Positions 3,238 through 21,070 of a stretch of DNA of 23,703 nucleotides are shown one piece after another; within the stretch, counting starts at the first letter, position 1; every line of letters begins with the position of its first letter. Below the pieces are notes generated by a model. The model saw only the letters and a list, made by a program, of their open reading frames with translations, made no database searches and was not told where the DNA came from. Source of the stretch: a virus (Duplodnaviria; Heunggongvirae; Uroviricota; Caudoviricetes); the IMG/VR virus record IMGVR_UViG_2585427753_000011. One strand, 5' to 3'. A program made the position numbers and the translations under genes.

Positions 3238-3509
3238 GTATTCGTATTGAAATTGGCGAACGTTATGTCGTTACCAGTGACAGCTTTCAGTTTATTCTCC
3301 ACGAGAAAAAGAGAGCGGAAAGCGGTAAAAACGCCGGTCAGGAATGGCTGGCGGTGGTTGGTTATTACCCGAAATTAAGCCAGCTCGTTTCCGGCCTGAT
3401 GCATCACGATATTCTGACCGGAAGCGCAAAGTCTTTTGCTGATTTAAACGGGCAGGTTGAGCAACTCAGCAAGCGTTGTTCAGAGGCTTTTGGCTCATAT
3501 GGCCGTTAA
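3234..3509 (+). CDS. Hypothetical early protein (P2 orf83-like)
   Basis: 91-aa ORF; stop overlaps the A start. Confidence 0.6.
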   Translation: MSIRIEIGERYVVTSDSFQFILHEKKRAESGKNAGQEWLAVVGYYPKLSQLVSGLMHHDILTGSAKSFADLNGQVEQLSKRCSEAFGSYGR

Positions 3510-5778
3510 AGCCTCCGGGCGTTTTGTCCCTCCGTCAGCATTTGCCGCAGGCACCGGTAAGACGTTTACCGGTGCTTATGCATGGAACGCGCCACGCGAG
3601 GCCGTCGGGCGCGAAAGACCCCTTACACGTGACGAGATGCGTCAGGTGCAAGGTGTTTTATCCACGATTAACCGCCTGCCTTACTTTTTGCGTTCGCTGT
3701 TTACTTCACGCTATGACTACATCCGGCGCAATAAAAGCCCGGTGCACGGGTTTTATTTCCTCACATCCACTTTTCAGCGTCGTTTATGGCCGCGCATTGA
3801 GCGCGTGAATCAGCGCCATGAAATGAACACCGACGCGTCGTTACTGTTTCTGGCAGAGCGTGACCACTATGCGCGCCTGCCGGGAATGAATGACAAGGAG
3901 CTGAAAAAATTTGCCGCCCGTATCTCATCGCAGCTTTTCATGATGTATGAGGAACTCTGCGATGCCTGGGTGGATGCCCATGGCGAAAAAGAATCGCTGT
4001 TTACGGATGAGGCGCAGGCTCACCTGTATGGTCATGTTGCTGGCGCTGCACGTGCTTTCAATATTTCCCCGCTCTACTGGAAAAAATACCGTAAAGGACA
4101 GATGACCACGAGGCAGGCATATTCTGCCATTGCCCGCCTGTTTAACGATGAGTGGTGGACTCATCAGCTTAAAGGCCAGCGTATGCGCTGGCATGAGGCG
4201 TTACTGATTGCTGTCGGGGAGGTCAATAAAGACCGTTCTCCTTATGCCAGTAAACATGCCATTCGTGATGTGCGTGCACGCCGCCAGGCAAATCTGGAAT
4301 TTCTTAAATCGTGTGACCTTGAAAACAGGGAAACCGGCGAGCGCATCGACCTTATCAGTAAGGTGATGGGCAGTATTTCTAATCCTGAAATTCGCCGGAT
4401 GGAGCTGATGAACACCATTGCCGGTATTGAGCGTTACGCCGCAGCAGAGGGTGATGTGGGGATGTTTATCACGCTGACCGCGCCGTCAAAGTATCACCCG
4501 ACACGTCAGGTCGGAAAAGGCGAAAGTAAAACCGTCCAGCTAAATCACGGCTGGAACGATGAGGCATTTAATCCAAAGGATGCGCAGCGTTATCTCTGCC
4601 ATATCTGGAGCCTGATGCGCACGGCATTCAAGGATAATGATTTACAGGTCTACGGTTTGCGTGTCGTCGAGCCACACCACGACGGAACGCCGCACTGGCA
4701 TATGATGCTTTTTTGTAATCCACGCCAGCGTAACCAGATTATTGAAATCATGCGTCGCTATGCGCTCAAAGAGGATGGCGACGAAAGAGGAGCCGCGCGA
4801 AACCGTTTTCAGGCAAAACACCTTAACCGGGGCGGTGCTGCGGGATATATCGCGAAATACATCTCAAAAAACATCGACGGCTATGCACTGGATGGTCAGC
4901 TCGATAATGATACCGGTAGGCCGCTGAAAGACACAGCTGCGGCTGTTACCGCATGGGCGTCAACGTGGCGCATTCCGCAATTTAAAACGGTTGGTCTGCC
5001 GACAATGGGGGCTTACCGTGAACTACGCAAATTGCCTCGCGGCGTCAGCATTGCTGATGAGTTTGACGAGCGCGTCGAGGCTGCACGCGCCGCTGCAGAC
5101 AGTGGTGATTTTGCGTTGTATATCAGCGCGCAGGGCGGGGCAAATGTCCCGCGCGATTGTCAGACTGTCAGGGTCGCCCGTAGCCCGTCGGATGACGTTA
5201 ACGAGTACGAGGAAGAAGTCGAGAGAGTGGTCGGCATTTACGCGCCGCATCTCGGCGCGCGTCATATTCATATCACCAGAACGACGGACTGGCGCATTGT
5301 TCCGAAAGTGCCGGTCGTTGAGCCTTTGACTTTAAAAAGCGGCATCGCCGCGCCTCGGAGTCCTGTCAATAACTGTGGAAAGCTCACCGGTGGTGATACT
5401 TCGTTACCGGCTCCCACACCTTCTGAGCACGCCGCAGCAGTGCTTAATCTGGTTGATGACGGTGTTATTGAATGGAATGACCAGGAGGTCGTGAGGGCGC
5501 TCAGGGGCGCATTAAAACGAGGTCTGAGAAGACCAAACCGTCAGCAAAGAAACGGAAGCCCGTTAAAACAGCATGAAATGGCACCATCGGCCAGACTGAC
5601 CCGGTCAGAACGAATGCAAATTACCCGTATCCGCGTTGACCTTGCTCAGAACGGTATCAGGCCGCAGCGATGGGAGCTTGAGGCGCTGGCGCGTGGAGCA
5701 ATTGTAAATTACGACGGGAAAAAATTCACGTATCCAGTCGCTGATGAGTGGCGGGGATTCTCAGCAGTAATGGAGTGA
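3499..5778 (+). CDS. A: Replication initiation endonuclease A (rolling-circle HUH endonuclease)
   Basis: Track ORF 3457..5778; start set at ATG 3499 (MAVKASGRF...) by resemblance to the P2 gpA N-terminus and coupling to the upstream stop. Contains a histidine-rich HUH-type motif (HHDGTPHWHMMLF). Confidence 0.9.
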   Translation: MAVKASGRFVPPSAFAAGTGKTFTGAYAWNAPREAVGRERPLTRDEMRQVQGVLSTINRLPYFLRSLFTSRYDYIRRNKSPVHGFYFLTSTFQRRLWPRIERVNQRHEMNTDASLLFLAERDHYARLPGMNDKELKKFAARISSQLFMMYEELCDAWVDAHGEKESLFTDEAQAHLYGHVAGAARAFNISPLYWKKYRKGQMTTRQAYSAIARLFNDEWWTHQLKGQRMRWHEALLIAVGEVNKDRSPYASKHAIRDVRARRQANLEFLKSCDLENRETGERIDLISKVMGSISNPEIRRMELMNTIAGIERYAAAEGDVGMFITLTAPSKYHPTRQVGKGESKTVQLNHGWNDEAFNPKDAQRYLCHIWSLMRTAFKDNDLQVYGLRVVEPHHDGTPHWHMMLFCNPRQRNQIIEIMRRYALKEDGDERGAARNRFQAKHLNRGGAAGYIAKYISKNIDGYALDGQLDNDTGRPLKDTAAAVTAWASTWRIPQFKTVGLPTMGAYRELRKLPRGVSIADEFDERVEAARAAADSGDFALYISAQGGANVPRDCQTVRVARSPSDDVNEYEEEVERVVGIYAPHLGARHIHITRTTDWRIVPKVPVVEPLTLKSGIAAPRSPVNNCGKLTGGDTSLPAPTPSEHAAAVLNLVDDGVIEWNDQEVVRALRGALKRGLRRPNRQQRNGSPLKQHEMAPSARLTRSERMQITRIRVDLAQNGIRPQRWELEALARGAIVNYDGKKFTYPVADEWRGFSAVME

Positions 5779-6019
5779 ACGTCGCCCGTTGCGAAAATTA
5801 TTTACAGGGGGCAGCGTTAAGCATCTAAAGATCTTGTTCTATGATTAGAATGTTTCCTCGTTGCACTCTCGTATAGTTATTTAATGGGAAGATGTACTCT
5901 ATATGTTGTGTTTTGGTGATAAATGAAGCCAAAGGAAGGAGATTTTGCTTGATTGATGGGCGCTCTTTGCTATACACCTTGTATTGAGAAGGAGAAGTAA
6001 TCAAGGATTAAGCTGGCTT

Positions 6020-6073
6020 TTGTCAAAAATCTGAAAAGCTTTTTTGACTGAATACGATAGCGAGTTGTACTAT
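6020..6073 (+). promoter_or_regulatory. Candidate sigma70 promoter with overlapping inverted repeats upstream of the cargo membrane operon
   Basis: -35 TTGACT (6044-6049), 18-nt spacer, -10 TACTAT (6068-6073), ~35 nt upstream of ATG 6108. Inverted repeat GTCAAAAA (6022-6029) / TTTTTGAC (6041-6048) and palindrome AAAAGCTTTT (6034-6043) overlap the -35. Confidence 0.35.
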
Positions 6074-6107
6074 TTGCGCCCTCAAAAGTAACCGGCGGCT
6101 GGGTAAA

Positions 6108-6482
6108 ATGGGGAAGCAAGGCAAAGGCAAAGGCAACAAAAATCAGGTTAAGGTTACGTGGGCTCAGGCGTGGCGGGATGTAATGATAAGAGCCATGTCT
6201 AATGGTCAGTTGATACCTATTACCATCAGTATTATTTTAATGATTGCTGCATGGAGGTTACCAAAAACAGACTTGTCCAATTTAGCCTTCTCTATTGTTG
6301 ATGGCTTTAAGGAGCATTCCTTGGTTGGTTGGGCTATCTCGGTAATAGTGGGTTTGGCTTGGTCTGCACATGCGCGAATCATGAGGCGCTGTTTTAGTTC
6401 CGAGGCACAGAGAATCGGTAACGAGAAAACAAAGTATCAACAAAGACAGACCACTCAAGCCTTGGGTACAAGTGATAAATAG
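6108..6482 (+). CDS. Cargo gene 1: small two-transmembrane-helix protein with Lys/Gly-rich N-terminus
   Basis: 124-aa ORF; two hydrophobic segments (LIPITISIILMIAAW; LVGWAISVIVGLAWSAHA). Weak SD, so start is uncertain (alternative Met at 6183/6195). AT-rich relative to backbone. Confidence 0.6.
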   Translation: MGKQGKGKGNKNQVKVTWAQAWRDVMIRAMSNGQLIPITISIILMIAAWRLPKTDLSNLAFSIVDGFKEHSLVGWAISVIVGLAWSAHARIMRRCFSSEAQRIGNEKTKYQQRQTTQALGTSDK

Positions 6483-6502
6483 TTGTTTATTTAGGAGTTA
6501 TT

Positions 6503-7060
6503 ATGCTGACAGTGCTGTTTTATGTGCTGTTGGGTTTAGGCGCAGCACACTTCATTTACGAGCGAATCATTTTGCCGTCCATCCGACTTCATTATAGAAA
6601 CCAATTGTTTGCGCTTCGTGATGTCGCTAGGAGGAAAATCATTGATGGAGGTTCCGATACTTCCATGCAAGCGGCAACACTTGTGCATGACTCATTGAAT
6701 AACGCTATCAATAGATTGCATTTACTCACGTTGCCAAACAAATTTCGTGCTCAAAAGCGTATGGCAGAAAACCATGCAATAAGGCAGAAAATTCGGCGTG
6801 AGATAGATGTTTTCAAACGCTGTGATGATAGAGAAGTTGTTGATGTACTGTTTAAATCCGGTCGGATACTTGAAAATGTACTGTTATTCAATAGCTTAAT
6901 GTTATTGCTTTACATGTTTCCATTTGTCCTTGCTGTATGGTTCTGTGTTAGGGTCATAAAGACAGCAAGTAGTTTAGTACAGTGGGTCAAAGGAAGAGAT
7001 TTAGAGGAAGCTATAATGCTGCTTCCTGATACTCAGGTTGAAAAGGTTGTATACGCATAA
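6503..7060 (+). CDS. Cargo gene 2: membrane protein with N- and C-terminal hydrophobic helices
   Basis: 185-aa ORF with strong SD (AGGAG ~5 nt upstream); hydrophobic N-terminus (LTVLFYVLLGLGAAHFIY) and C-terminal segment (LLFNSLMLLLYMFPFVLAVWFCV) around a charged helical region; 20 nt after gene 1. Confidence 0.7.
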   Translation: MLTVLFYVLLGLGAAHFIYERIILPSIRLHYRNQLFALRDVARRKIIDGGSDTSMQAATLVHDSLNNAINRLHLLTLPNKFRAQKRMAENHAIRQKIRREIDVFKRCDDREVVDVLFKSGRILENVLLFNSLMLLLYMFPFVLAVWFCVRVIKTASSLVQWVKGRDLEEAIMLLPDTQVEKVVYA

Positions 7061-7088
7061 AAATCACCCCTTAGGGGGTGATTTTTTT
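7061..7088 (+). terminator. Rho-independent terminator ending the two-gene membrane operon
   Basis: Stem ATCACCCC (7063-7070) / GGGGTGAT (7075-7082), loop TTAG, followed by a T-run; immediately after the stop at 7060. Confidence 0.8.
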
Positions 7089-7299
7089 ACATGACTTTTG
7101 ATTAGCTGACATTGTAAATCCGCATGTATCAGATGCATTGTTTTGCATGTGGAAATGGGTGTTTTCACTGCCAGCTATCGCTACATGTAGCAAAAACACG
7201 GGCTTAATAAGAAATCATTCTGCCATAAGGCATAACTTCCCCGCGTGCTCAGGTATTGACGTCATAGATATGGATCTTTTTTAATCAAGGTATGGTATT

Positions 7300-8247
7300 A
7301 TGAAGATATTTATTAGTTGGTCAGGTCAGGACAGCCTGGAGATAGCAAAAGTATTACGGGATTGGATACCGAATGTTATTCAAGTAGCTGAGCCGTACGT
7401 ATCAGCGGAAGATATTGATAAAGGCACTCGCTGGGCGACTGATATATCAAAGGAACTTGATGACTCTTCTTATGGGATTATTTGCCTTACAAAAAATAAT
7501 ATTAATGCACCGTGGATAAATTTTGAGGCGGGTGCTTTAGGTAAAAAGGTTGATAAGAGCCGGGTTAGTCCTTTCTTGTTTAAAATTAAACCATCTGAGA
7601 TAACAGGCCCAATATTACAATTCCAGTATACTCGTTCGGATGATAAGAACGATATTTTGAAGTTGATGTTGTCAATAAATAATCAAGCAGGATTTTTGAC
7701 TGAAGAACGCTTAACTAAAGCTTTCGAGCAATGGTGGCCAAGTTTAGAGCGTGAGTTAGATAACATTCAAGATATTAACCCTGTAGATAAAGATTCCACT
7801 AAAAAAACAAAAGGTGATTCGACTTCTGAGATACAAAATCTTTCCAAAATTGTTGAAAGTTTGCTGGATATTAGCCGAACAAATCACCAATTATTGCGTG
7901 ATCCAGCATCATTATTGCCAGAAGAATATGTTAGCAAAATAATAAACAGGGAAGGGCGTAAAGAAACTGTTTTAAAAATTGTAGCTTCTGATTTATTATC
8001 CATGCATCATTCACTAATTCGTGTAAAAAGAAGATTTATTCGTCGTGGTATTGATGAAACATCTAGGAGCGAGTTAATTGAATCATTAAATAAAATGATA
8101 ATGGATTGTTCTAGAGTAATCGCTCACTTAGATAATTATTGTGGGGCTTCATCAAACAATATGTTCAATAGTGCGCTTAGATTGCGGACCAGAAATTTAA
8201 TTGACATGATGGATGAGGAGGATGCAGAACGGGATGAAATGGAATAA
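7300..8247 (+). CDS. Cargo gene 3: TIR-domain protein with uncharacterised C-terminal helical domain
   Basis: 315 aa. N-terminal ~130 aa has TIR hallmarks: KIFISWSGQDS first strand, GIICLT strand, and W-x-x-F-E-A-G motif (WINFEAGAL) aligning by eye with the catalytic-Glu region of bacterial TIR NADases. C-terminal ~170 aa has no motif I recognise. Own transcription unit. Confidence 0.75.
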   Translation: MKIFISWSGQDSLEIAKVLRDWIPNVIQVAEPYVSAEDIDKGTRWATDISKELDDSSYGIICLTKNNINAPWINFEAGALGKKVDKSRVSPFLFKIKPSEITGPILQFQYTRSDDKNDILKLMLSINNQAGFLTEERLTKAFEQWWPSLERELDNIQDINPVDKDSTKKTKGDSTSEIQNLSKIVESLLDISRTNHQLLRDPASLLPEEYVSKIINREGRKETVLKIVASDLLSMHHSLIRVKRRFIRRGIDETSRSELIESLNKMIMDCSRVIAHLDNYCGASSNNMFNSALRLRTRNLIDMMDEEDAERDEME

Positions 8248-8298
8248 TCAATTTTGACTAATCATAAATAATTTTGCATATATAAACTTATAATGCCG

Positions 8299-8321
8299 CA
8301 GCCGCTATTTTTCAGCGGCTG
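8299..8321 (+). other. Stem-loop downstream of the TIR gene (possible weak terminator or RNA structure)
   Basis: CAGCCGCT (8299-8306) / AGCGGCTG (8314-8321), 7-nt loop ATTTTTC; no U-tract after the stem. Confidence 0.3.
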
Positions 8322-8791
8322 TATATCGCTTATAATGGGTATGTTATTTTTATTTTGATAAAATCATTAAAATTGTCGATGTTATATGAATGCACATGTA
8401 TTATTAATGTTAGAAGATTATGCCTGCTTACGGCTATTGTGCTGAATTCAACTATGAACGCATCAGTATTAAAATCGTTCCATGAAATGTTCTTCGTCTA
8501 CAGCAGATGATGGGCAACGAAAAAATGACGCTGAGTGAGTTGGTCGGGGAGAATTGTTAGAGGTATTTATGGAGTGGTTTAATAATATCGGTCAATCCTG
8601 AGTTGCAGCATCACATAGACGATAGGGAATCTCTCCAGTCGTTCTGGAATGGCAGCGTTGAACAACAAGCACAGCGAGGCGTTAGATGCCCATCAGATTG
8701 ACACAGAGGGTTTATGAATCGCTGGGATTTACTTAGTTTGAAAAATAATATATTTATATGTTTTTGTATTGTGTTTGTTAAGGAGTTTGGA

Positions 8792-8998
8792 TTGAAAAGA
8801 AAACTGATTTGTGTTATGGCTTTTTGGGGGGCGTTGCTGGCTGGTTGTAATGAGAGTAATAAAAAAGAAGTTGAGGGTTGTATTGAAAGAGGTGTCCAAT
8901 ATTTTATAGAGATTGGTTCTTACCCTAAATTAAGTGATGGGCGTGATGCTGTAAAAGTTGCTACTGAACGTTGTAATAGAACAATAACGGCTTTCTGA
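8792..8998 (+). CDS. Cargo gene 4: small predicted lipoprotein (lipobox LLAGC)
   Basis: Track ORF 8714..8998 has an improbable N-terminus. An in-frame TTG at 8792 follows AGGAG (8781-8785, 6-nt spacer) and gives (M)KRKLICVMAFWGALLAG-C: a basic n-region, hydrophobic core and lipobox Cys. Mature protein ~49 aa. Confidence 0.6.
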   Translation: MKRKLICVMAFWGALLAGCNESNKKEVEGCIERGVQYFIEIGSYPKLSDGRDAVKVATERCNRTITAF

Positions 8999-9000
8999 TA

Positions 9001-9918
9001 ATGGATTATACGAGCTATATAATAGGACAGCTTCAGGTTGAGGATATTATTGATGCAATTAAAGGCGTTAATAATACTAATGTCATAAAAGATTATGTGC
9101 TGCCTGTAGTATTACCAATTATATCTTCTGTGCTGAGTTACTTTATTGCAACTAGGTTGTTTTATCGGCAGGAGGACCTTAAAGCACAAAGAAGAAAGGT
9201 AAGCGTTGTAAATAAATGTATTTATGACTACTTTTCTGCAATGACAACGTTGTTGCAAATTAAAGGGAATTATTATGGTGGGGTAAGTATAAGTGAAAAT
9301 CCTATCGAGAGGGCTTTAGCTTTTCCTGTTGTGGTTTTTTCTGGTGCTCCTCTATCATCAGATTTAAGTGAGTTGGCCTGTATATTGAGTCAAAAGGGAG
9401 TAGGGAATAATAGAGAGCCAGCAAAGACTACTAACTGGGGGGATGCTTTTGCTGTTAGTGATATAGCAAGAAGGTTTAACAGCCTATTGGCTGCATTAAA
9501 TGTTAGGAATGATTTTGATGACACCTATAGAGGAATGATTATTGAATCAACAGGTTCACCTTTGCCTACGATGCGTTTTAAAAATGATGATATTGTTAAT
9601 GCTATAGGTAGTAATAAGGCAGCTTATTACATTGATATTACTGAGCAAATAATGATTATGATAGATGTTTTGTTGCTTGATATTAATCTGTTGCTCAAAG
9701 AGTTGCCATTGTATGCTGAATCGCTGTTTGACAAAAGAGTAATGCAAGAAGATTCAGGGATTCTTAAATTCAATGATTTGCACGAACGTTTTCCTCTACT
9801 TATGAAACCTGTAACGCCACCTTCGATTAAACTCATGTCTGATTATTTGGGGTACAGTGAAGATGAGATCTTACGACGCTATCCATACCCGTTCTTTAAT
9901 ATGCATGATTGTGAATGA
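9001..9918 (+). CDS. Cargo gene 5: 305-aa protein with one N-terminal transmembrane helix, no recognisable domain
   Basis: Starts 2 nt after the lipoprotein stop (translational coupling). Hydrophobic segment VLPVVLPIISSVLSYFIATRLF near the N-terminus; AT-rich codon usage. Confidence 0.7.
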   Translation: MDYTSYIIGQLQVEDIIDAIKGVNNTNVIKDYVLPVVLPIISSVLSYFIATRLFYRQEDLKAQRRKVSVVNKCIYDYFSAMTTLLQIKGNYYGGVSISENPIERALAFPVVVFSGAPLSSDLSELACILSQKGVGNNREPAKTTNWGDAFAVSDIARRFNSLLAALNVRNDFDDTYRGMIIESTGSPLPTMRFKNDDIVNAIGSNKAAYYIDITEQIMIMIDVLLLDINLLLKELPLYAESLFDKRVMQEDSGILKFNDLHERFPLLMKPVTPPSIKLMSDYLGYSEDEILRRYPYPFFNMHDCE

Positions 9919-10021
9919 ATGTGCATATGTCAGAAGCCGTTTTTATTGTCAGTTATCGTCAGTGCTGGCGCGCTCTTGGAGTGTTCATGCAACTGCATTA
10001 AAACCGCCCCACGAAGCGGGC

Positions 10022-10040
10022 GGGCGAGGCGGGGAAAGCA
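10022..10040. other. Probable cos cohesive-end site
   Basis: GGCGAGGCGGGGAAAGCAC at 10022-10040 matches the P2 19-nt cohesive end as I recall it; in a GC-rich non-coding stretch just upstream of portal Q, where cos lies in P2. Confidence 0.6.
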
Positions 10041-10198: not shown

Positions 10199-11233
10199 TC
10201 AGCCGTTGTCAGTGTCCAGTGAGTAGTTTTTAAAGCGGATGACCTCCTGACCGAGCCAGCCGTTTATTTCCCGAATCCTGTCCTGTAACGGGATAAGTTC
10301 ATTGCGGACAAAGACCTTTGCCACTTTCTCAATATCGCCCAGCGACCCGACGTTTTCCGGCTTGCCACCCATCAACTGAAAGGGGATGCGGTGCGCGTCC
10401 AGCAGGTCAGCGGCGCTGGCTTTTTTGATATTAAAAAAATCGTCCTTCGTGGCCACTTCACTGAGCGGGATAATTTTAATGCCGTCGGCTTTTCCCTGTG
10501 GGGCATAGAGAAACAGGTTTTTAAAGTTATTGCGGCCTTTCGACTTCACCATGTTTTCGCGGAGCATTTCGATATCGTTGCGATCCTGCACGGCATCAGT
10601 GACGTACATGATGTATCCGGCATGTGCGCCGTTTTCGTAATACTTGCGGCGGAACAGCGTGGCCGACTCATTCAGCCAGGCAGAGTTAAGGGCGCTGAGA
10701 TATTCCGGCAGACCGTACAGCTCCTGATTAATATCCGGCTCCAGCAGGTGAAACACGGAGCCGGGCGCGAAAGGTGTCGGCTCGTTGAAGGACGGCACCC
10801 ACCAGTAAACATCCTCCTCCACGCCACGGCGGGGATATTTTGCCGGGGAGGGTTCCAGTCTGATGACCTTACCGGTGGTGCTGTAACGCTTTTCCAGAAA
10901 CGCATTACCGAATACCAGAAAATCCAGCACAAAGCGGCTGAAATCCTGCTGAGAAAGCCACGGGTGTGGGATAAACGTTGAGGCCAGAATGTTACGTTTG
11001 ACGTAAATCGGTGAGCTGTGATGCACGGCAGCACGCAGGCTTTTTGCCAGACCGGTAAAGCTGACTGGTGGCTCATACCATCTGCCGTTACTGATGCACT
11101 CGACGTAATCCAGAATGTCACGGCGGTCGAGTACCGGCACCGGCTCACCAAAGGTGAATGCCTCCATTTTCGGGGCGCTGGCGGTCATTTTTTTTGCCGC
11201 AGGTTGCGGTGTTTTCCCTTTTTTCTTGCTCAT
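10199..11233 (-). CDS. Q: Portal protein Q
   Basis: 344 aa, same length as P2 gpQ and recognisable sequence (MSKKKGKTPQPAAKK...); adjacent to cos. Confidence 0.9.
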   Translation of the reverse strand: MSKKKGKTPQPAAKKMTASAPKMEAFTFGEPVPVLDRRDILDYVECISNGRWYEPPVSFTGLAKSLRAAVHHSSPIYVKRNILASTFIPHPWLSQQDFSRFVLDFLVFGNAFLEKRYSTTGKVIRLEPSPAKYPRRGVEEDVYWWVPSFNEPTPFAPGSVFHLLEPDINQELYGLPEYLSALNSAWLNESATLFRRKYYENGAHAGYIMYVTDAVQDRNDIEMLRENMVKSKGRNNFKNLFLYAPQGKADGIKIIPLSEVATKDDFFNIKKASAADLLDAHRIPFQLMGGKPENVGSLGDIEKVAKVFVRNELIPLQDRIREINGWLGQEVIRFKNYSLDTDNG

Positions 11234-11979
11234 CAGTAAAACTCCAGAATGGTGGATGTCAGCGGGGTGCTGATACCGGCGGTGAGTGGCTCATTTAACA
11301 GGGCGTGCATGGTCGCCCAGGCGAGGTCGGCGTGGCTGGCTTCCTCGCTACGGCTGGCCTCATAGGTGGCGCTGCGTCCGCTGCTGGTCATGGTCTTGCG
11401 GATAGCCATGAACGAGCTGGTGATGTCGGTGGCGCTGCGTCCGCTGCTGGTCATGGTCTTGCGGATAGCCATGAACGAGCTGGTGATGTCGGTGGCGCTG
11501 CGTCCGCTGCTGGTCATGGTCTTGCGGATAGCCATGAACGAGCTGGTGATGTCGGTGGCGCTGCGTCCGCTGCTGGTCATGGTCTTGCGGATAGCCATGA
11601 ACGAGCTGGTGATGTCGGTGGCGCTGCGTCCGCTGCTGGTCATGGTCTTGCGGATAGCCATGAACGAGCTGGTGATGTCGGTGGCGCTGACGTCATATTC
11701 CAGACAGCCACGGCGGATGACGTCTTTTGCCTTGAGCACCATTGCGGTTTTCATTTCCGGCGTGTAGCGGATATCGCGTGCGGCGGGATAGAACGAGCGC
11801 ACGAGCTGGAACACGCCGACACCGAGGCCGGTGGCATCAATTCCGATGTATTCGACGTTGTATTTTTCGGTGAGTTTGCGGATGGATTCCGCCTGAGTGG
11901 CAAAGTCCATGCCTTTCCACTGGTGACGCTCAAGTATTCTGAATTTACCTCCGGCCACCACCGGCGGTGCCAGCACCAC
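11233..11979 (-). pseudogene. P: Terminase large subunit P, C-terminal remnant with internal tandem-repeat expansion
   Basis: 248-aa frame that opens at GTG with no upstream gene context. Reads as the C-terminal part of P2 terminase ATPase/nuclease, plus four extra 21-aa repeat copies. N-terminal ~400 aa absent; upstream sequence runs straight into endolysin K. Confidence 0.8.
11368..11682. repeat. Perfect 63-bp tandem repeat, 5 copies, in-frame within the terminase remnant
   Basis: GGCGCTGCGT recurs at 11368, 11431, 11494, 11557, 11620, then partially at 11683; on the minus strand this encodes SATDITSSFMAIRKTMTSSGR x5. Copies are identical by eye. Confidence 0.9.
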
Positions 11980-11995
11980 GCATCCGGCGCTGGCC

Positions 11996-12439
11996 GTGTC
12001 CGAAGGGACGGCGAATCATCCGCTGACGAAAAACCGGGGCTATGACGTGATAGTCACCGGACTGGACGGAAAGCCGGAAATTTTCACCGACTACAGTGAC
12101 CACCCGTTCGCACATGGTCGACCGGCGAAGGTGTTTAACCGTCGCGGTGAAAAATCCACGGCCTCCGGTCGCTATCAGCAGCTTTACCTGTTCTGGCCGC
12201 ATTACCGCAAACAGCTTGCCCTGCCGGATTTCAGTCCGTTGTCACAGGACAGGCTCGCCATTCAGTTGATCCGCGAACGCGGTGCACTGGATGACATCCG
12301 GGCGGGACGCATTGAGCGCGCCATTTCACGCTGTCGCAATATCTGGGCGTCCCTGCCGGGTGCCGGTTACGGTCAGCGTGAGCATCCACTGGAAAAACTG
12401 GTCACCGTCTGGCGTACCGCCGGCGGCGTACCGGCTTAA
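11996..12439 (+). pseudogene. K: Endolysin K, N-terminally truncated
   Basis: Frame reads SEGTANHPLTKNRGYDVIVTGLDGKPEIF... to ...TAGGVPA, which I recognise as P2 lysozyme K lacking roughly its first 18 residues. No holin Y upstream; the frame opens at a GTG at the deletion junction. Confidence 0.75.
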
Positions 12440-12453
12440 ACGGAGTAAACACC

Positions 12454-12879
12454 ATGAAGAAATTATCCCTTTCACTGATGCTGAATGTGCCGCTGGCGCT
12501 GATGCTGGCACTGTCCCTGATTTACCCGCAGAGCGTGGCCGTCAGTTTTGTCGCCGCCTGGGCGATTCTGGCGACGGTTATCTGTGTGGTTGCCGGTGGT
12601 GTCGGCGTGTATGCCACTGAGTATGTGCTGGAACGCTACGGGCGGGAGCTGCCGCCGGAATCGCTGGCCGTGAAGATTGTCACGTCGCTGTTTTTGCAGC
12701 CGGTGCCGTGGCGCAGACGGGCAGTAGCTCTGGTGGTGATGGTGGCGACGTTTATCTCGCTGGTCGCTGCCGGGTGGATTTTTACCGCGCTGATTTATCT
12801 TGTGGCGTCGCTGTTTTTCCGGCTGATACGTAAAGCCTGCCGTCAGCGTTTTGAGGGGCGGGAACCATGTCAAAGCTGA
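12454..12879 (+). CDS. lysA: Lysis accessory membrane protein LysA
   Basis: 141 aa, multi-TM, same size and position as P2 LysA. Confidence 0.85.
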   Translation: MKKLSLSLMLNVPLALMLALSLIYPQSVAVSFVAAWAILATVICVVAGGVGVYATEYVLERYGRELPPESLAVKIVTSLFLQPVPWRRRAVALVVMVATFISLVAAGWIFTALIYLVASLFFRLIRKACRQRFEGREPCQS

Positions 12880-13292
12880 TGATTGTGCTGGTTGTGCTGT
12901 TATCGCTGGCGGTGGCGGGGCTGTTTCTGGTGAAGCATGAAAACGCCAGCCTGCGCGCCTCGCTGGACAGGGCGAACAACGTCGCCAGTGAACAGCAGAC
13001 GACCATCACCATGCTGCAAAATCAGCTTCATGTTGCCATCACCAGGGCAGACAAAAACGAGCTGGCGCAGGTGGCACTGCGTCAGGAACTGGAGAACGCC
13101 GCGAAGCGTGAAGCACAGCGCGAGAAAACCATCACGAGGTTACTTAATGAAAACGAAGATTTTCGCCGCTGGTATGGCGCTGACCTGCCTGATGCTGTGC
13201 GCCGGTTGCACCAGCGCCCCGCCTGCACCGACGCCAGTGATTGTCGCCAACGCCTGCCCGAAAGTGAGCCTTTGCCCGATGCCGGGCAGTGA
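12867..13292 (+). CDS. lysB: LysB (Rz-like inner-membrane spanin)
   Basis: 141 aa with N-terminal TM helix and coiled-coil region; P2 LysB size and position. Confidence 0.85.
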   Translation: MSKLMIVLVVLLSLAVAGLFLVKHENASLRASLDRANNVASEQQTTITMLQNQLHVAITRADKNELAQVALRQELENAAKREAQREKTITRLLNENEDFRRWYGADLPDAVRRLHQRPACTDASDCRQRLPESEPLPDAGQ

Positions 13293-13437
13293 CCCGGAGA
13301 CGAACGGCGATTTAAGTGCCGATATCCGGCAGCTTGAGAACGCGCTGGCACGTTGTGCCAGCCAGGTAAAAATGATTAAACACTGTCAGGACGAAAACGA
13401 TGCTCAAACCCGACAGCCTGCGCAGGGCGCTGACTGA
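13147..13437 (+). CDS. lysC: LysC (Rz1-like outer-membrane lipoprotein spanin), out of frame across the lysB 3' end
   Basis: Track ORF 12937..13437; real start is ATG 13147 (MKTKIFAAGMALTCLMLCAG-C, lipobox), giving 96 aa as in P2 LysC; Pro-rich mature region. Confidence 0.8.
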   Translation: MKTKIFAAGMALTCLMLCAGCTSAPPAPTPVIVANACPKVSLCPMPGSDPETNGDLSADIRQLENALARCASQVKMIKHCQDENDAQTRQPAQGAD

Positions 13438-13867
13438 TGCCGTCACGGTGCTGAAAACTAACCCCGATATGCTGCGGATATTCGTGGATAACGGGAGTAT
13501 TGCCTCCACACTGGCGGCGTCGTTGTCATTCGAAAAGCGTTACACGCTCAATGTCATTGTGACCGACTTTACCGGTGATTTTGACCTGCTCATCGTGCCG
13601 GTGCTGGCGTGGCTGCGGGAAAATCAGCCCGACATCATGACCACCGACGAAGGCCAGAAAAAGGGCTTCACGTTTTATGCAGACATCAACAATGACAGCA
13701 GCTTTGATATCAGTATCAGCCTGATGCTGACCGAGCGCACGCTGGTCAGTGAGGTTGACGGTGCGCTGCATGTGAAGAATATCCCGGAACCTCCGCCGCC
13801 GGAGCCAGTCAATCGCCCGATGGAGCTTTATATCAATGGTGAACTGGTGAGCAAGTGGGATGAATGA
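13400..13867 (+). CDS. R: Tail completion protein R
   Basis: 155 aa, P2 gpR length and position. Confidence 0.85.
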   Translation: MLKPDSLRRALTDAVTVLKTNPDMLRIFVDNGSIASTLAASLSFEKRYTLNVIVTDFTGDFDLLIVPVLAWLRENQPDIMTTDEGQKKGFTFYADINNDSSFDISISLMLTERTLVSEVDGALHVKNIPEPPPPEPVNRPMELYINGELVSKWDE

Positions 13868-14312
13868 GTTTAAGCGTTTTGAAGACCGACTGACCGGACT
13901 GATTGAATCGCTGTCACCGTCTGGGCGTCGGCGACTGAGTGCAGAACTGGCGAAACGTCTGCGGCAGAGTCAGCAGCGTCGGGTGATGGCACAGAAAGCT
14001 CCGGACGGCACACCCTACGCACCACGCCAGCAGCAGAGCGCCAGAAAAAAGACCGGTCGCGTTAAGCGAAAAATGTTTGCGAAACTTATCACCAGTCGTT
14101 TTTTGCATATCCGCGCCAGCCCTGAACAGGCATCAATGGAGTTTTACGGCGGGAAGTCACCGAAAATCGCCAGTGTGCATCAGTTCGGTCTGTCGGAAGA
14201 AACCCGGAAAGACGGTAAGAAAATTGATTATCCGGCGCGTCCTCTGCTCGGCTTTACCGGTGAGGATGTGCAGATGATTGAAGAGATTATCCTGGCTCAC
14301 CTTGAGCGTTAG
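13860..14312 (+). CDS. S: Tail completion protein S
   Basis: 150 aa, P2 gpS length and position. Confidence 0.85.
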   Translation: MNEFKRFEDRLTGLIESLSPSGRRRLSAELAKRLRQSQQRRVMAQKAPDGTPYAPRQQQSARKKTGRVKRKMFAKLITSRFLHIRASPEQASMEFYGGKSPKIASVHQFGLSEETRKDGKKIDYPARPLLGFTGEDVQMIEEIILAHLER

Positions 14313-14342
14313 TTTTATCCAGACAGAGGCTGATGCGCAATT

Positions 14343-14377
14343 AAACATTGAGCGGCCATGCTGGTCGCTCAATGTTT
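14343..14377. terminator. Bidirectional terminator hairpin between convergent S and the orf30-position gene
   Basis: 12-bp stem AAACATTGAGCG (14343-14354) / CGCTCAATGTTT (14366-14377), 11-nt loop; between stop codons at 14310-14312 (+) and 14384-14386 (-). Confidence 0.6.
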
Positions 14378-14383
14378 AGAGGT

Positions 14384-15169
14384 TTATGAGTGATTTTTAT
14401 TTGATGCTTTGTATTCTAAAACCTTCTTATTGGCGTAAAAGAATTTTGTATATGACAGGAATATAACCAGACCTGAAGTGAAATAGACGAGGGATAGTAT
14501 TAATAATGCTTTTTTGCGACTGTTATTATCTTTAATCTCCAGGCTTAACCATTCGGAGTCCTCCTCGTTTAGCTGTAAGAGCTTATTGCAGGCGATTTCA
14601 GGAAGTGTGTCTTTTATAAATACGTTTTGCAGTCTCTTGCAATCGGCAAGGCTATAAGTTTTATTAAATTCAACTGCTTTATTTTTGAAGGATAAAAGAA
14701 CTTTGTCACTATAAACATAGTACATCATGTTTTTATATGGTATGCCTATGGCATCCCTTACTATAACGGATTGTTCGTTGTGTATGTAACATGCGAGGAG
14801 AATGTAAAAAATACTGGCCAGAATTACAATTATTGTTTTAATTATGTGTGGTGGTTTTGTTATGTCACCCCAGATGCGAGTAAGGAAAAAATACGATGTT
14901 TTTAGTTTTCCATCAATCAGTCCCTGCTGTATCATTCTCACATTTTCAATGCCTGATACATTGATTCCGTTAATTATTTTAAATAGTTGAATGTCGCGCC
15001 ACTCGCGGTCAAGTCTTTTTAATTTTTTGTCTGAATATCCAAAATTGAAATAATGTGCAATAAGCCTCATAAGGTTACTTTTACCAAAGCTAAAAAATGC
15101 TAATACTGCAAAGCTACAAAGGAAAAAAACGATTAGCCCCCACACATTAGTCACATTATAGCTGACCAT
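14384..15169 (-). CDS. AT-rich moron at the P2 orf30 position: membrane protein with ~3 TM helices, unknown function
   Basis: 261-aa ORF antisense to the late operons between S and V; hydrophobic segments near aa 9-28, 111-131 and 228-247; Lys/Asn/Ile/Phe-rich. Confidence 0.7.
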   Translation of the reverse strand: MVSYNVTNVWGLIVFFLCSFAVLAFFSFGKSNLMRLIAHYFNFGYSDKKLKRLDREWRDIQLFKIINGINVSGIENVRMIQQGLIDGKLKTSYFFLTRIWGDITKPPHIIKTIIVILASIFYILLACYIHNEQSVIVRDAIGIPYKNMMYYVYSDKVLLSFKNKAVEFNKTYSLADCKRLQNVFIKDTLPEIACNKLLQLNEEDSEWLSLEIKDNNSRKKALLILSLVYFTSGLVIFLSYTKFFYANKKVLEYKASNKNHS

Positions 15170-15252
15170 TACGCTCTCCTTGAATGTTGTCTGGTAGTTC
15201 TACAAATGAATCCAGATAGCATAACTTTTATATATTGTGCAATCTCACATGC

Positions 15253-15888
15253 ATGAACACTCTCGCAAATATTCAGGAACTCGCGCGCGCACTGCGCAAC
15301 ATGATTCGCACCGGCATTATCGTCGAAACCGACCTTAACGCCGGTCGCTGCCGCGTGCAGACCGGCGGCATGTGCACCGACTGGCTTCAGTGGCTGACCC
15401 ATCGCGCCGGTCGTTCGCGCACATGGTGGGCACCTTCCGTGGGGGAACAGGTGCTGATTCTGTCCGTGGGCGGTGAACTCGACACGGCGTTTGTTCTGCC
15501 GGGGATTTATTCCGGCGATAATCCCGCGCCGTCTGCGTCGGCGGATGCCCTGCATATCCGTTTCCCTGACGGGGCGGTGATTGAGTATGAACCCGAAACC
15601 AGTGCGCTCACGGTAAGCGGAATTAAAACGGCCAGCGTGACGGCTTCCGGTTCTGTTACTGCCACTGTGCCGGTGGTCATGGTGAAAGCGTCAACCCGCA
15701 TCACCCTGGACACACCGGAGGTGGTCTGCACCAACAGGCTGATTACCGGCACGCTGGAAGTGCAGAAGGGCGGGACGATGCGCGGCAACATTGAACACAC
15801 CGGCGGTGAACTCTCATCAAACGGTAAGGTACTGCATACCCATAAACACCCCGGCGACAGCGGCGGCACAACCGGGAGTCCTCTATGA
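15253..15888 (+). CDS. V: Baseplate spike protein V
   Basis: Track ORF 15235..15888; start set at ATG 15253 (MNTLANIQELARA...) to give the 211-aa P2 gpV; stop overlaps W start. Confidence 0.9.
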   Translation: MNTLANIQELARALRNMIRTGIIVETDLNAGRCRVQTGGMCTDWLQWLTHRAGRSRTWWAPSVGEQVLILSVGGELDTAFVLPGIYSGDNPAPSASADALHIRFPDGAVIEYEPETSALTVSGIKTASVTASGSVTATVPVVMVKASTRITLDTPEVVCTNRLITGTLEVQKGGTMRGNIEHTGGELSSNGKVLHTHKHPGDSGGTTGSPL

Positions 15889-16232
15889 CAGCGCGTTATC
15901 TCGGAATGAATCGCAGTGATGGCCTGACGGTCACTGACCTTGAGCATATCAGCCAGAGTATCGGCGATATCCTGCGCACACCGGTCGGCTCACGGGTGAT
16001 GCGCCGTGATTACGGCTCGTTGCTGGCGTCAATGATTGACCAGCCGCAGACCCCGGCGCTTGAGTTGCAGATTAAGGTCGCCTGTTACATGGCGGTGCTG
16101 AAATGGGAACCCCGCGTCACCCTGTCATCCGTCACCACGGCGCGCAGTTTTGACGGGCGAATGACGGTCACGTTAACCGGTCAGCACAACGACACCGGTC
16201 AGCCACTTTCGTTAACCATCCCTGTGAGTTGA
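15885..16232 (+). CDS. W: Baseplate wedge protein W
   Basis: 115 aa, P2 gpW length and position. Confidence 0.9.
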   Translation: MTARYLGMNRSDGLTVTDLEHISQSIGDILRTPVGSRVMRRDYGSLLASMIDQPQTPALELQIKVACYMAVLKWEPRVTLSSVTTARSFDGRMTVTLTGQHNDTGQPLSLTIPVS

Positions 16233-16236
16233 AACC

Positions 16237-17145
16237 ATGCCGATTATCGACCTGAACCAGCTACCCGCACCGGATGTGGTCGAGGAGCTGGACTTTGAAA
16301 CCATTCTTGCCGAACGCAAGGCGACACTGATTTCCCTTTACCCGGAAGACCAGCAGGAGGTGGTCGCCCGTACCCTGACGCTGGAATCGGAGCCTCTCGT
16401 CAAACTGCTGGAAGAAAATGCTTATCGTGAGCTTATCTGGCGTCAGCGTGTGAATGAGGCCGCACGGGCGGTGATGCTGGCCTGTGCCGCCGGTAATGAC
16501 CTTGATGTGATTGGTGCCAATTACAACACCACACGCCTGATTATCATCCCGGCAGATGATTCGACCATCCCGCCGACACCGGCAGTGATGGAATCTGACA
16601 CCGATTATCGTCTGCGTATTCAGCAGGCGTTTGAAGGTTTAAGCGTTGCCGGGTCGGTGGGAGCCTATCAGTATCATGGTCGCAGTGCCGACGGGCGTGT
16701 CGCGGATATCTCTGTCACCAGTCCGTCTCCGGCCTGTGTCACTATCTCCGTGCTGTCCCGAGAAAATAACGGTGTCGCATCCGAAGACCTGCTGGCTGTG
16801 GTGCGTAACGCTCTTAATGGCGAGGACGTCAGGCCGGTGGCTGACCGTGTGACCGTGCAGTCTGCCGCCATTGTTGAATACCAGATAAACGCCACGCTGT
16901 ATCTTTACCCTGGTCCAGAAAGCGAACCCATCCGCGCCGCCGCCGTGAAAAAACTGGAAGCGTACATCACGGCACAGCACCGGCTGGGGCGCGACATCCG
17001 TCTGTCTGCCATTTATGCCGCTTTGCATGTGGAAGGCGTGCAGCGTGTCGAACTGACTGCACCGCTGGCTGACATCGTGCTCAACAGTACGCAGGCGTCT
17101 TTCTGCACCGAATACAGCGTCGTGACCGGAGGCTCGGATGAGTGA
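16237..17145 (+). CDS. J: Baseplate protein J
   Basis: 302 aa, P2 gpJ length and position. Confidence 0.9.
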   Translation: MPIIDLNQLPAPDVVEELDFETILAERKATLISLYPEDQQEVVARTLTLESEPLVKLLEENAYRELIWRQRVNEAARAVMLACAAGNDLDVIGANYNTTRLIIIPADDSTIPPTPAVMESDTDYRLRIQQAFEGLSVAGSVGAYQYHGRSADGRVADISVTSPSPACVTISVLSRENNGVASEDLLAVVRNALNGEDVRPVADRVTVQSAAIVEYQINATLYLYPGPESEPIRAAAVKKLEAYITAQHRLGRDIRLSAIYAALHVEGVQRVELTAPLADIVLNSTQASFCTEYSVVTGGSDE

Positions 17146-20476: not shown

Positions 20477-21070
20477 ATGTTTACTAAGCGACGATTAAAA
20501 AATATTAACTGGGAGGCAAGTTCAGTGATTCTTGCTATGGTTCTCTTTGTTGGAAATATATTTTATACAAATCATCGTGATGATATAAGCATGGAGGCTG
20601 AGAGGGACAGTATCAGAACAATGTTTGCATATGAAATCGCTAATAACCATCGCGCTCTCACTTTTCTTGATAAAACGAGACATATTGGCTTTGACGAAAA
20701 TTCGGAGCATTTTGTTGGCGAGCCTTTTGCCATTAATGTCAAATCATTAGGGGGACCTCGCTTACAGATTGCATTAAACCAGACTGATAAAGTGTTTAAA
20801 TCCTACTTCGGCGAATTAAGTAAGCTTGATAAAGAGGATGTTACTCTTCTTATGGACTATTACCATGAGCAAAGCATCCTGCTGGAGCGTGTAAAATCTA
20901 CGTTACAGAAGATGAAAAGTGGTAATGATATTAAAGTTGATATTGATGGTTGCTTATTAGAAGAACACTTCATGAATGAGCTTAATCTTTCTAATATTTT
21001 GCTTAAACGCTATAGCTATTTATTATCACAACACGCTAAGGAACATAAAACAAAAGATTTACATAATTGA
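20477..21070 (+). CDS. AT-rich moron at the P2 Z/fun position: 197-aa protein with one N-terminal TM helix, unknown function
   Basis: ORF between G and the FI remnant, where P2 carries Z/fun; AT-rich flanks; hydrophobic segment SSVILAMVLFVGNIFY near the N-terminus. Confidence 0.65.
   Translation: MFTKRRLKNINWEASSVILAMVLFVGNIFYTNHRDDISMEAERDSIRTMFAYEIANNHRALTFLDKTRHIGFDENSEHFVGEPFAINVKSLGGPRLQIALNQTDKVFKSYFGELSKLDKEDVTLLMDYYHEQSILLERVKSTLQKMKSGNDIKVDIDGCLLEEHFMNELNLSNILLKRYSYLLSQHAKEHKTKDLHN

Follow-up and report, generated by a model that had tools for sequence, protein, structure and literature searches.

One three-gene system or two stacked cassettes? The 2TM, 1TM and TIR genes of a P2-like prophage

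When two small membrane-protein genes are followed by a gene for a TIR-domain protein, do the three encode one antiphage machine, or do two separate units merely share a site? This question is raised by a locus in the IMG/VR virus record IMGVR_UViG_2585427753_000011, a stretch of 23,703 nucleotides that was analyzed as a whole and is called the window here. The window is a P2-like (Peduovirus) prophage with 97–99.8% identity to Escherichia phage P2_AC1 (hereafter AC1) across nearly its full length. Its 4.4-kb low-GC cargo stretch (GC 0.32–0.43, against 0.52–0.60 in the phage core) lies between replication gene A and a cos-like sequence (GGCGAGGCGGGG at 10023), the gpA–cos interval that Rousset et al. 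2022 (PMC9122126) described as a hotspot for cargo genes in P2-like phages. On the open reading frame (ORF) map, the genes for the 2TM, 1TM and TIR proteins are adjacent and all on the + strand within this hotspot, between gpA and cos/portal, and the same arrangement was seen in the annotation of an identical locus in E. coli 0-4. As set out below, the locus is probably two self-sufficient cassettes stacked in the hotspot and not one obligate three-gene machine.

The identity of the locus is near certain: it is the AC1-type '2TM + 1TM + TIR' system, named Rst_2TM_1TM_TIR in DefenseFinder and covered by the models 2TM-TIR, 1TM-TIR and TIR-TM in PADLOC. All three proteins matched these models over their full length, gene 1 with E = 2.2e-58 (residues 1–124 on profile positions 1–124 of 124), gene 2 with E = 2.7e-75 (residues 1–184 on positions 1–183 of 186) and gene 3 with E = 2.3e-118. 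The cargo region DNA is 99.6% identical to that of phage P2_AC1. At the protein level, 1TM is identical (185/185), the TIR protein differs at one residue (314/315, 99.7%; residue 283 is A here and V in AC1) and 2TM is identical save for a two-residue GK deletion. The three proteins correspond to the sequences given for plasmid pFD240 ('2TM + 1TM + TIR') in Table S2A of Rousset 2022, and the cloned 2.8-kb fragment of pFD240, placed by the primers of that table, corresponds to window positions 5843–8635.

These matches to PADLOC, AC1 and pFD240 bear out a sequence-only reading of the window, which had likened the arrangement to a 2TM/1TM/TIR-type system from P2-like prophage hotspots. Its companion suggestion of a possibly new arrangement falls away; the locus is already known as the published type example and, as found, adds nothing new to the AC1 system. 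The same reading had described two small membrane proteins of 124 and 185 amino acids (aa), which are indeed intact ORFs with hydrophobic helices of the kind it described, as judged by hydropathy. It had also assigned a TIR domain to the third gene product, in agreement with a Pfam TIR_2 match at residues 3–113 (E = 4.7e-10; 40.5 bits against a cut-off of 28), and a strong terminator to the end of gene 2, where a hairpin folds at −17.8 kcal/mol (z = −5.84; 0 of 200 shuffles fold equally well).

Experimental work on the system comes from Rousset et al. (PMC9122126), who isolated AC1 and reported that an AC1 lysogen resists lambda and LF82_P8. In E. coli C, the cloned AC1 locus reproduced protection against both phages and also blocked P2, and the authors proposed that a TIR-made messenger activates the membrane proteins (PMC9122126). 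No single-gene deletions of the AC1 locus were found in the text or supplements of that paper that were searched, and full-text searches for the names of the system gave catalogue mentions only and no later mechanistic paper.

Separate distributions of the membrane pair and the TIR gene

The loci compared here are samples (at most 80 per scan) and not a census, and ORFs in the fetched loci were called mechanically. All three genes were found together only at identities of at least 99%, namely in AC1, in two IMG/VR contigs and in 14 of 5426 complete E. coli genomes. Distant blastn searches with the pair and with the TIR gene against the complete E. coli genomes returned the same 14 near-identical copies only; diverged copies came to light through protein searches.

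The pair of membrane proteins has a wide distribution of its own. Informative loci that hold the pair without a TIR gene numbered 34 and reached down to 22% identity. In 26 loci with a 1TM homologue at 42–86% identity, the 2TM homologue was directly upstream and TIR was absent, and a 2TM homologue directly upstream was a feature of every examined locus with 1TM at 42–100% identity. The linkage extends to remote viral loci (22–35% identity), where 2TM was directly upstream in eight of nine, the ninth being a truncated 70-aa match; a TIR gene was present in none of these nine. Close relatives of the 1TM protein formed 49 clusters, all from Enterobacterales, and a profile search gathered 1049 clusters at 50% identity, of which the top 150 were all 160–194 aa long and free of fused domains. 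A tblastn search against isolated phages returned AC1 only, and the clusters of remote 1TM relatives that were looked up held metagenomic entries only. Pair-only loci in lambdoid prophages are located between antiterminator Q and holin or between the lysis genes and the HNH/terminase genes; in P2/186-like hotspots, including those with pairs 72–86% identical to that of the window, the pair is the last cargo, 137–188 bp before cos. Examples of pair-only loci are those of E. coli GCA_012121255.1 (81% identity) and, in a lambdoid prophage, GCA_028232405.1. All 16 pair-only loci that were folded have a strong intrinsic terminator, of varying sequence, after the stop codon of 1TM.

The TIR protein belongs to a well-defined, large family of about 290–350 aa, and a pattern scan found relatives encoded on 553 genomic stretches from many bacterial phyla and from Methanosarcina. 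Loci of this family without the membrane pair numbered 94. In the 80 TIR loci retained, phmmer and hidden Markov models of 2TM and 1TM gave zero matches to any ORF, and the neighbourhoods were heterogeneous. The closest relatives (78% identity in E. coli, as in GCA_002461255.1, and 74% in Klebsiella) are the sole cargo of the same gpA–cos P2 hotspot, where no space is left for the pair. The window and the E. coli TIR-only locus (L114) share homologous DNA over 7185–8486; the homology begins 115 bp upstream of the start codon for TIR and downstream of the pair's terminator, which is excluded. Further solo relatives were found on a Serratia chromosome, on an Enterobacter chromosome (52% identity) with phage- or satellite-like genes alongside, in the defence island of a Proteus prophage adjoining methylase, HEPN and GmrSD genes, and next to a SLATT/ThsB pair. 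Small Rep/Mob/RelE plasmids of Klebsiella pneumoniae (L119–L121) encode a 61% identical TIR protein directly after the replicase gene; it was seen in 365 blocks of the contig collection, a very common solo copy of the family.

None of the examined single-component relatives adjoins the other component, although the single PADLOC models match them: TIR-TM matched all 80 TIR relatives scanned and 1TM-TIR all 42 remote 1TM relatives scanned. The two parts of the locus also differ in GC content at third codon positions (GC3), which is 0.39–0.46 in the pair and 0.29 in the TIR gene. The sequence-only reading had treated the three genes as one candidate module. This view of a single conserved module is not supported: co-occurrence outside the near-clonal AC1-type cassette was not found, and such a lack of co-occurrence is what the reading itself had named as evidence to the contrary. 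Its own caveat, that the TIR gene might be an independent system, is the part supported by the comparative locus data. We lean, by a slight preference, towards the broader view that Rst_2TM_1TM_TIR is an accidental stack, in which 2TM + 1TM is a widespread, unrecognised two-gene module and TIR a separate single-gene defence family of many phyla.

Features of the locus and of the prophage around it

The elements of the two cassettes and the phage genes that flank the hotspot are collected in Table 1.

Table 1. Coordinates of features in and around the 2TM, 1TM and TIR genes (window positions)
Feature	Position	Strand	Remarks
Replication gene A (P2-type)	3457–5778		
Upstream region of the pair	5843–6107	+	Begins where the published pFD240 clone begins (forward primer, Table S2A)
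Promoter-like site TTGACT-18-TACTAT	6044–6073	+	Consensus scan, 9/12 matches; functional evidence not implied
Gene 1, '2TM' protein, 124 aa, intact	6108–6482	+	PADLOC PDLC02978 2TM-TIR; phrog_33772
Gene 2, '1TM' protein, 185 aa, intact	6503–7060	+	PADLOC PDLC02977 1TM-TIR; phrog_24550
Intrinsic terminator hairpin after gene 2	7059–7086	+	AAAAAUCACCCC-UUAG-GGGGUGAUUUUU into a U tract reaching ~7092
Triple (T)GCATG motif, GCATG-N7-ATGCA-N6-TGCATG	7120–7150	.	Also in pair-only P2-like loci
Upstream region of the TIR cassette	7185–7299	+	Conserved in TIR-only loci
Promoter-like TTGACG-18-TTTAAT	7256–7261 and 7280–7285	+	Candidate, by eye; consensus-like match
Gene 3, TIR protein, 315 aa, intact	7300–8247	+	PADLOC PDLC03016 TIR-TM; Pfam TIR_2
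Downstream end of the TIR cassette	8248–8486	+	Homology with TIR-only locus L114 stops at 8486
GC-rich hairpin without clear U tract	8298–8322	+	Fold not significant, z −1.8
Portal gene Q	10199–11233	-	

Transmembrane (TM) helices were assigned from Kyte–Doolittle hydropathy alone. The 2TM protein has hydrophobic helices at residues 35–51 and 71–87, and its topology is likely N-in/C-in because both termini are positively charged (+6 and +4). The N-terminal tail is rich in Lys and Gly, and the cytoplasmic C-terminal tail carries a conserved stretch, W..HA..MRR.FS.EA.RIG.EKT..QQ..T...LGTSDK, in an alignment of 15 homologues. Near its start, the 2TM gene carries in-frame repeats of GGCAAA (Gly-Lys; 6117–6140) that differ in copy number among strains, giving proteins of 124 aa in the window, 126 aa in AC1 (one more GK repeat) and 128 aa in P0170; two of the 14 E. 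coli genomes have six extra bases at this repeat. For the 1TM protein, in which Rousset et al. counted one TM, hydropathy gave two hydrophobic helices (residues 2–18 and 133–149) on either side of a central domain with a charge of +9. Conserved motifs in homologue alignments are HF(I/V)YE..I.PS.R...R..LF.LRD..R, LNN.INRL and N130...P140. Its AlphaFold2 model (predicted local distance difference test score, pLDDT, 85.7) is all-helical with a basic helical central domain, and Foldseek found no significant fold match for it in PDB or BFVD, nor did a PDB sequence search return anything. Neither 2TM nor 1TM belongs to a Pfam or NCBIfam family; in PHROGs both fall into unnamed groups of no known function, and the pair showed no homology to known defence proteins apart from the models derived from AC1.

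The hairpin after gene 2 escaped a simple consensus terminator scan, which reported no + strand terminator between genes 2 and 3, probably because an upstream A tract pairs with the U tail. The triple (T)GCATG motif downstream of it sits, in pair-only P2-like loci, between the pair's terminator and cos, and its copy at 7120–7150 is probably an old cos-proximal flank of the pair cassette. Clusters of (T)GCATG repeats occur about 100–150 bp from cos in P2-like loci (L092, L096–L099, L103, L122 and L124) and, in the window, at 9900–10000 near cos and a second time at 7120–7150, 2.9 kb from cos; a motif of the same kind is found in sequences of P4 clones listed in Rousset Table S2. The cluster may be a cassette boundary, a recombination anchor, or a packaging or regulatory site. 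TGCAT as such is not enriched across the window (63 matches against 85 expected), and only the local triple motifs stand out.

The AlphaFold2 model of the TIR protein (pLDDT 79) comprises a TIR fold at about residues 1–155 and three long helices at 176–282. The TIR core is highly conserved and is followed by a variable linker; E76, part of the motif PWINFEAGAL, does not vary among 80 homologues. The C-terminal helical region (176–282) lacks a recognisable fold or partner and is variable save for one highly conserved helix at about 186–210 (LEELLDLSRTNHQLLR.P..LLP..Y), which has many invariant positions. The top Foldseek matches of the model were SpbK (9phb), followed by the SPARTA TIR-APAZ protein, PdTIR and AbTir, in each case through the TIR domain. 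In a weak alignment (E 0.69), E76 (PWINFEA) is paired with the Glu of the AbTir WTNYE motif, which we take to be the catalytic E208. A profile of the TIR family searched against PDB sequences gave spurious coiled-coil matches only.

Between the TIR gene and cos lies a third cargo cassette of two + strand ORFs, a candidate cargo system outside the published pFD240 clone. ORF 8714–8998 encodes 94 aa (phrog_32041; the PHROG match starts at residue 27, and the protein is annotated with 68 aa elsewhere), and ORF 9001–9918 encodes 305 aa with an N-terminal hydrophobic helix (phrog_21267). Neither PHROG has an assigned function, and neither ORF matched Pfam, PADLOC or NCBIfam. Another P2-like hotspot, that of E. 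coli MS 16-3 (L002), holds this cassette without the trio. Low-GC islands in the tail-gene region at 14384–15169 (- strand, 261 aa) and 20477–21070 (+ strand, 197 aa), whose ORFs had no Pfam or PADLOC match, are probably other P2-type cargo sites.

Compared with AC1, the prophage has two deletions. About 5.3 kb is missing at ~11990 (AC1 26316–31632), removing most of P together with O, N, M, L, X and Y, and about 5.4 kb at ~21502 (AC1 11366–16801), with the loss of most of the sheath gene and part of D along with the tube gene, E, T and U. These losses make the prophage defective, yet its cargo ORFs are all intact. The terminase/endolysin junction is shared with one complete E. coli genome, NZ_CM146016.1. 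Within ORF 11233–11979 (- strand), a remnant of terminase ATPase gene P, a repeat unit of 63 bp is present in 5.2 copies at 99% identity (11365–11694), giving five in-frame copies of SATDITSSFMAIRKTMTSSGR where AC1 has about one. The segment 22723–23703, beyond the prophage end and absent from AC1, encodes a cation-efflux protein (CDF family, ZT_dimer) and presumably represents bacterial DNA flanking the attachment site.

Proposed mechanism and rival explanations

Under the two-cassette reading, cassette 1 (about 5843–7150) would be a classic prophage moron, in which an upstream region of its own precedes two neighbouring genes for inner-membrane proteins, which travel together, and a strong terminator comes last. 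It would most likely act on its own at the membrane, by excluding incoming phage or through abortive membrane damage, and the 2TM + 1TM pair may represent a new exclusion or abortive-infection system that works without further partners. Cassette 2 (about 7185–8486) would consist of one gene, with a conserved upstream region of its own, for a TIR protein that most likely works like solo TIR NADases such as SpbK. The non-TIR C-terminal helices would sense a phage component, upon which the TIR domains would cluster and NAD+ would be cleaved by way of the conserved Glu, E76, so that the infected cell is stopped; both the NADase activity and the role of E76 are predictions from sequence. Two hallmarks of solo TIR NADases were found for the window protein, namely a TIR fold with a predicted catalytic Glu and a gene that is mobile as a single-gene unit.

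Several points weigh against this reading. Separate distribution is compatible with cooperation in AC1, as defence modules often recombine. The sole experiment used all three genes jointly, and its authors proposed a TIR messenger activating the membrane proteins. The putative TIR promoter is only consensus-like and would yield an almost leaderless mRNA, and read-through of the terminator into the TIR gene is possible. The comparison draws on sampled loci with mechanically called ORFs, and the predicted NADase activity and E76 role come from homology and the weak AbTir alignment.

The model of Rousset et al., an obligate three-gene system in which TIR makes an NAD-derived, Thoeris-like messenger and the activated membrane proteins collapse the membrane and abort infection, is consistent with three adjacent genes on one strand that were cloned and active together. 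A logic of TIR plus membrane effector exists in type II Thoeris (summarised in PMC12847820), and the cassette is intact in 14 E. coli genomes and, here, within a degraded prophage. We nevertheless consider it unlikely. The 34 pair-only loci would hold orphan effectors without an activator, and in 94 loci, among them those of its nearest relatives in the same hotspot, the TIR family occurs without the pair. Genes 2 and 3 are set apart by a strong terminator and by an upstream region that is conserved separately. The pair gave no match to Macro, SLOG, SAVED or any other known ligand-binding family or fold (2TM by sequence only), and the TIR protein is without a ThsB-type signature.

If the pair were a lysis-timing or host-fitness moron and not a defence system, TIR alone would give the whole published phenotype. 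The pair adjoins the lysis cassette in lambdoid prophages (between Q and holin, or after Rz), it has no homology to known defence proteins beyond the AC1-derived models, and solo TIR proteins suffice for defence in other systems. However, in lambdoid phages the site downstream of Q takes up morons in general, so that this position is not specific to lysis, and in P2-like phages the pair occupies a cargo hotspot dominated by defence systems. We regard this explanation as distinctly unlikely; it is in any case a sub-case of the two-cassette reading more than a true alternative. Coupling might also be facultative and specific to AC1, with cassettes that act alone elsewhere and a pair that here modulates TIR, or the reverse, for a broader combined range. 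The modulation might, for instance, consist in detecting DNA as it enters at the membrane, or in a tether for the TIR protein. The stack is retained at identities of at least 99% in 14 E. coli isolates that are unrelated and of human, dog, poultry and cattle origin, which is in line with such coupling, as is the protection by the published clone against three rather different phages. However, clonal spread of one P2-like prophage accounts for this conservation without selection for coupling, and TIR helix 186–210 is equally conserved in TIR-only lineages across phyla and therefore shows no adaptation to the pair. Coupling of this kind appears very unlikely.

The two-cassette reading bears on how such loci are catalogued. 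One survey lists Rst_2TM_1TM_TIR among two systems undetected in its bacterial genome set, and its rarity in surveys is probably due to DefenseFinder and PADLOC requiring all three genes; the single-protein PADLOC models are far broader than the three-gene rule that rests on them. Should the cassettes prove independent, one catalogue entry should become two, the paired membrane proteins of prophages, a large family, would gain the status of a candidate defence or exclusion module, and the published model in which a TIR messenger activates TM effectors would need revising.

Comparison with known systems

The Rst_2TM_1TM_TIR system of AC1 has the same genes in the same order and in the same gpA–cos hotspot as the window, whose prophage lacks several head and tail genes that AC1 has. 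Type II Thoeris, in which the TIR protein ThsB is paired with a TM-Macro effector ThsA, is the analogy behind the published AC1 hypothesis (PMC9122126), and it likewise has a TIR gene beside membrane-protein genes; in the window, by contrast, a terminator separates the two. A Thoeris-like reading was considered and rejected. PADLOC gave no ThsB model match (E <= 0.01) and Pfam gave only TIR_2, no SLOG, Macro or similar domain was found in the pair (Pfam and NCBIfam; 1TM fold against PDB and BFVD), and co-occurrence of TIR and effector is not conserved (34 pair-only and 94 TIR-only loci; the trio only at identities of at least 99%). As no known nucleotide-receptor domain was detected in the pair, the Thoeris-like model is weakened.

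Lambda RexB, T4 Imm and HK97 gp15 are small inner-membrane exclusion or abortive-infection proteins of the prophage-moron type. The pair shares the moron layout of its own upstream region, genes and terminator, and like these proteins it consists of small inner-membrane proteins found at sites where temperate phages carry cargo; comparisons of sequence and fold (PHROGs; Foldseek for 1TM) detected no similarity to RexB, Imm or HK97 gp15.

For the TIR protein, the best structural match of the model is SpbK (9phb_A, E 8e-4), a single-gene, filament-forming TIR NADase of Bacillus subtilis ICEBs1 that acts by abortive infection and senses the SPbeta portal (PMC12847820). In SpbK, one TIR protein senses a phage protein through its non-TIR domain, clusters and cleaves NAD+ (PMC12847820). 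The two proteins have no detectable sequence similarity and their domain order is reversed, with an N-terminal sensor and C-terminal TIR in SpbK and an N-terminal TIR followed by C-terminal helices in the window protein. Both are nevertheless single polypeptides that combine a TIR with a non-TIR domain and are carried on a mobile element. A second parallel is offered by TIR-V as well as TIR-VI and TIR-IX of E. coli (Wang et al. 2024, PMC11350192), which are TIR-only, protect alone and need conserved active-site residues; they are single-protein TIR defences, as is proposed here for the TIR protein of the window.

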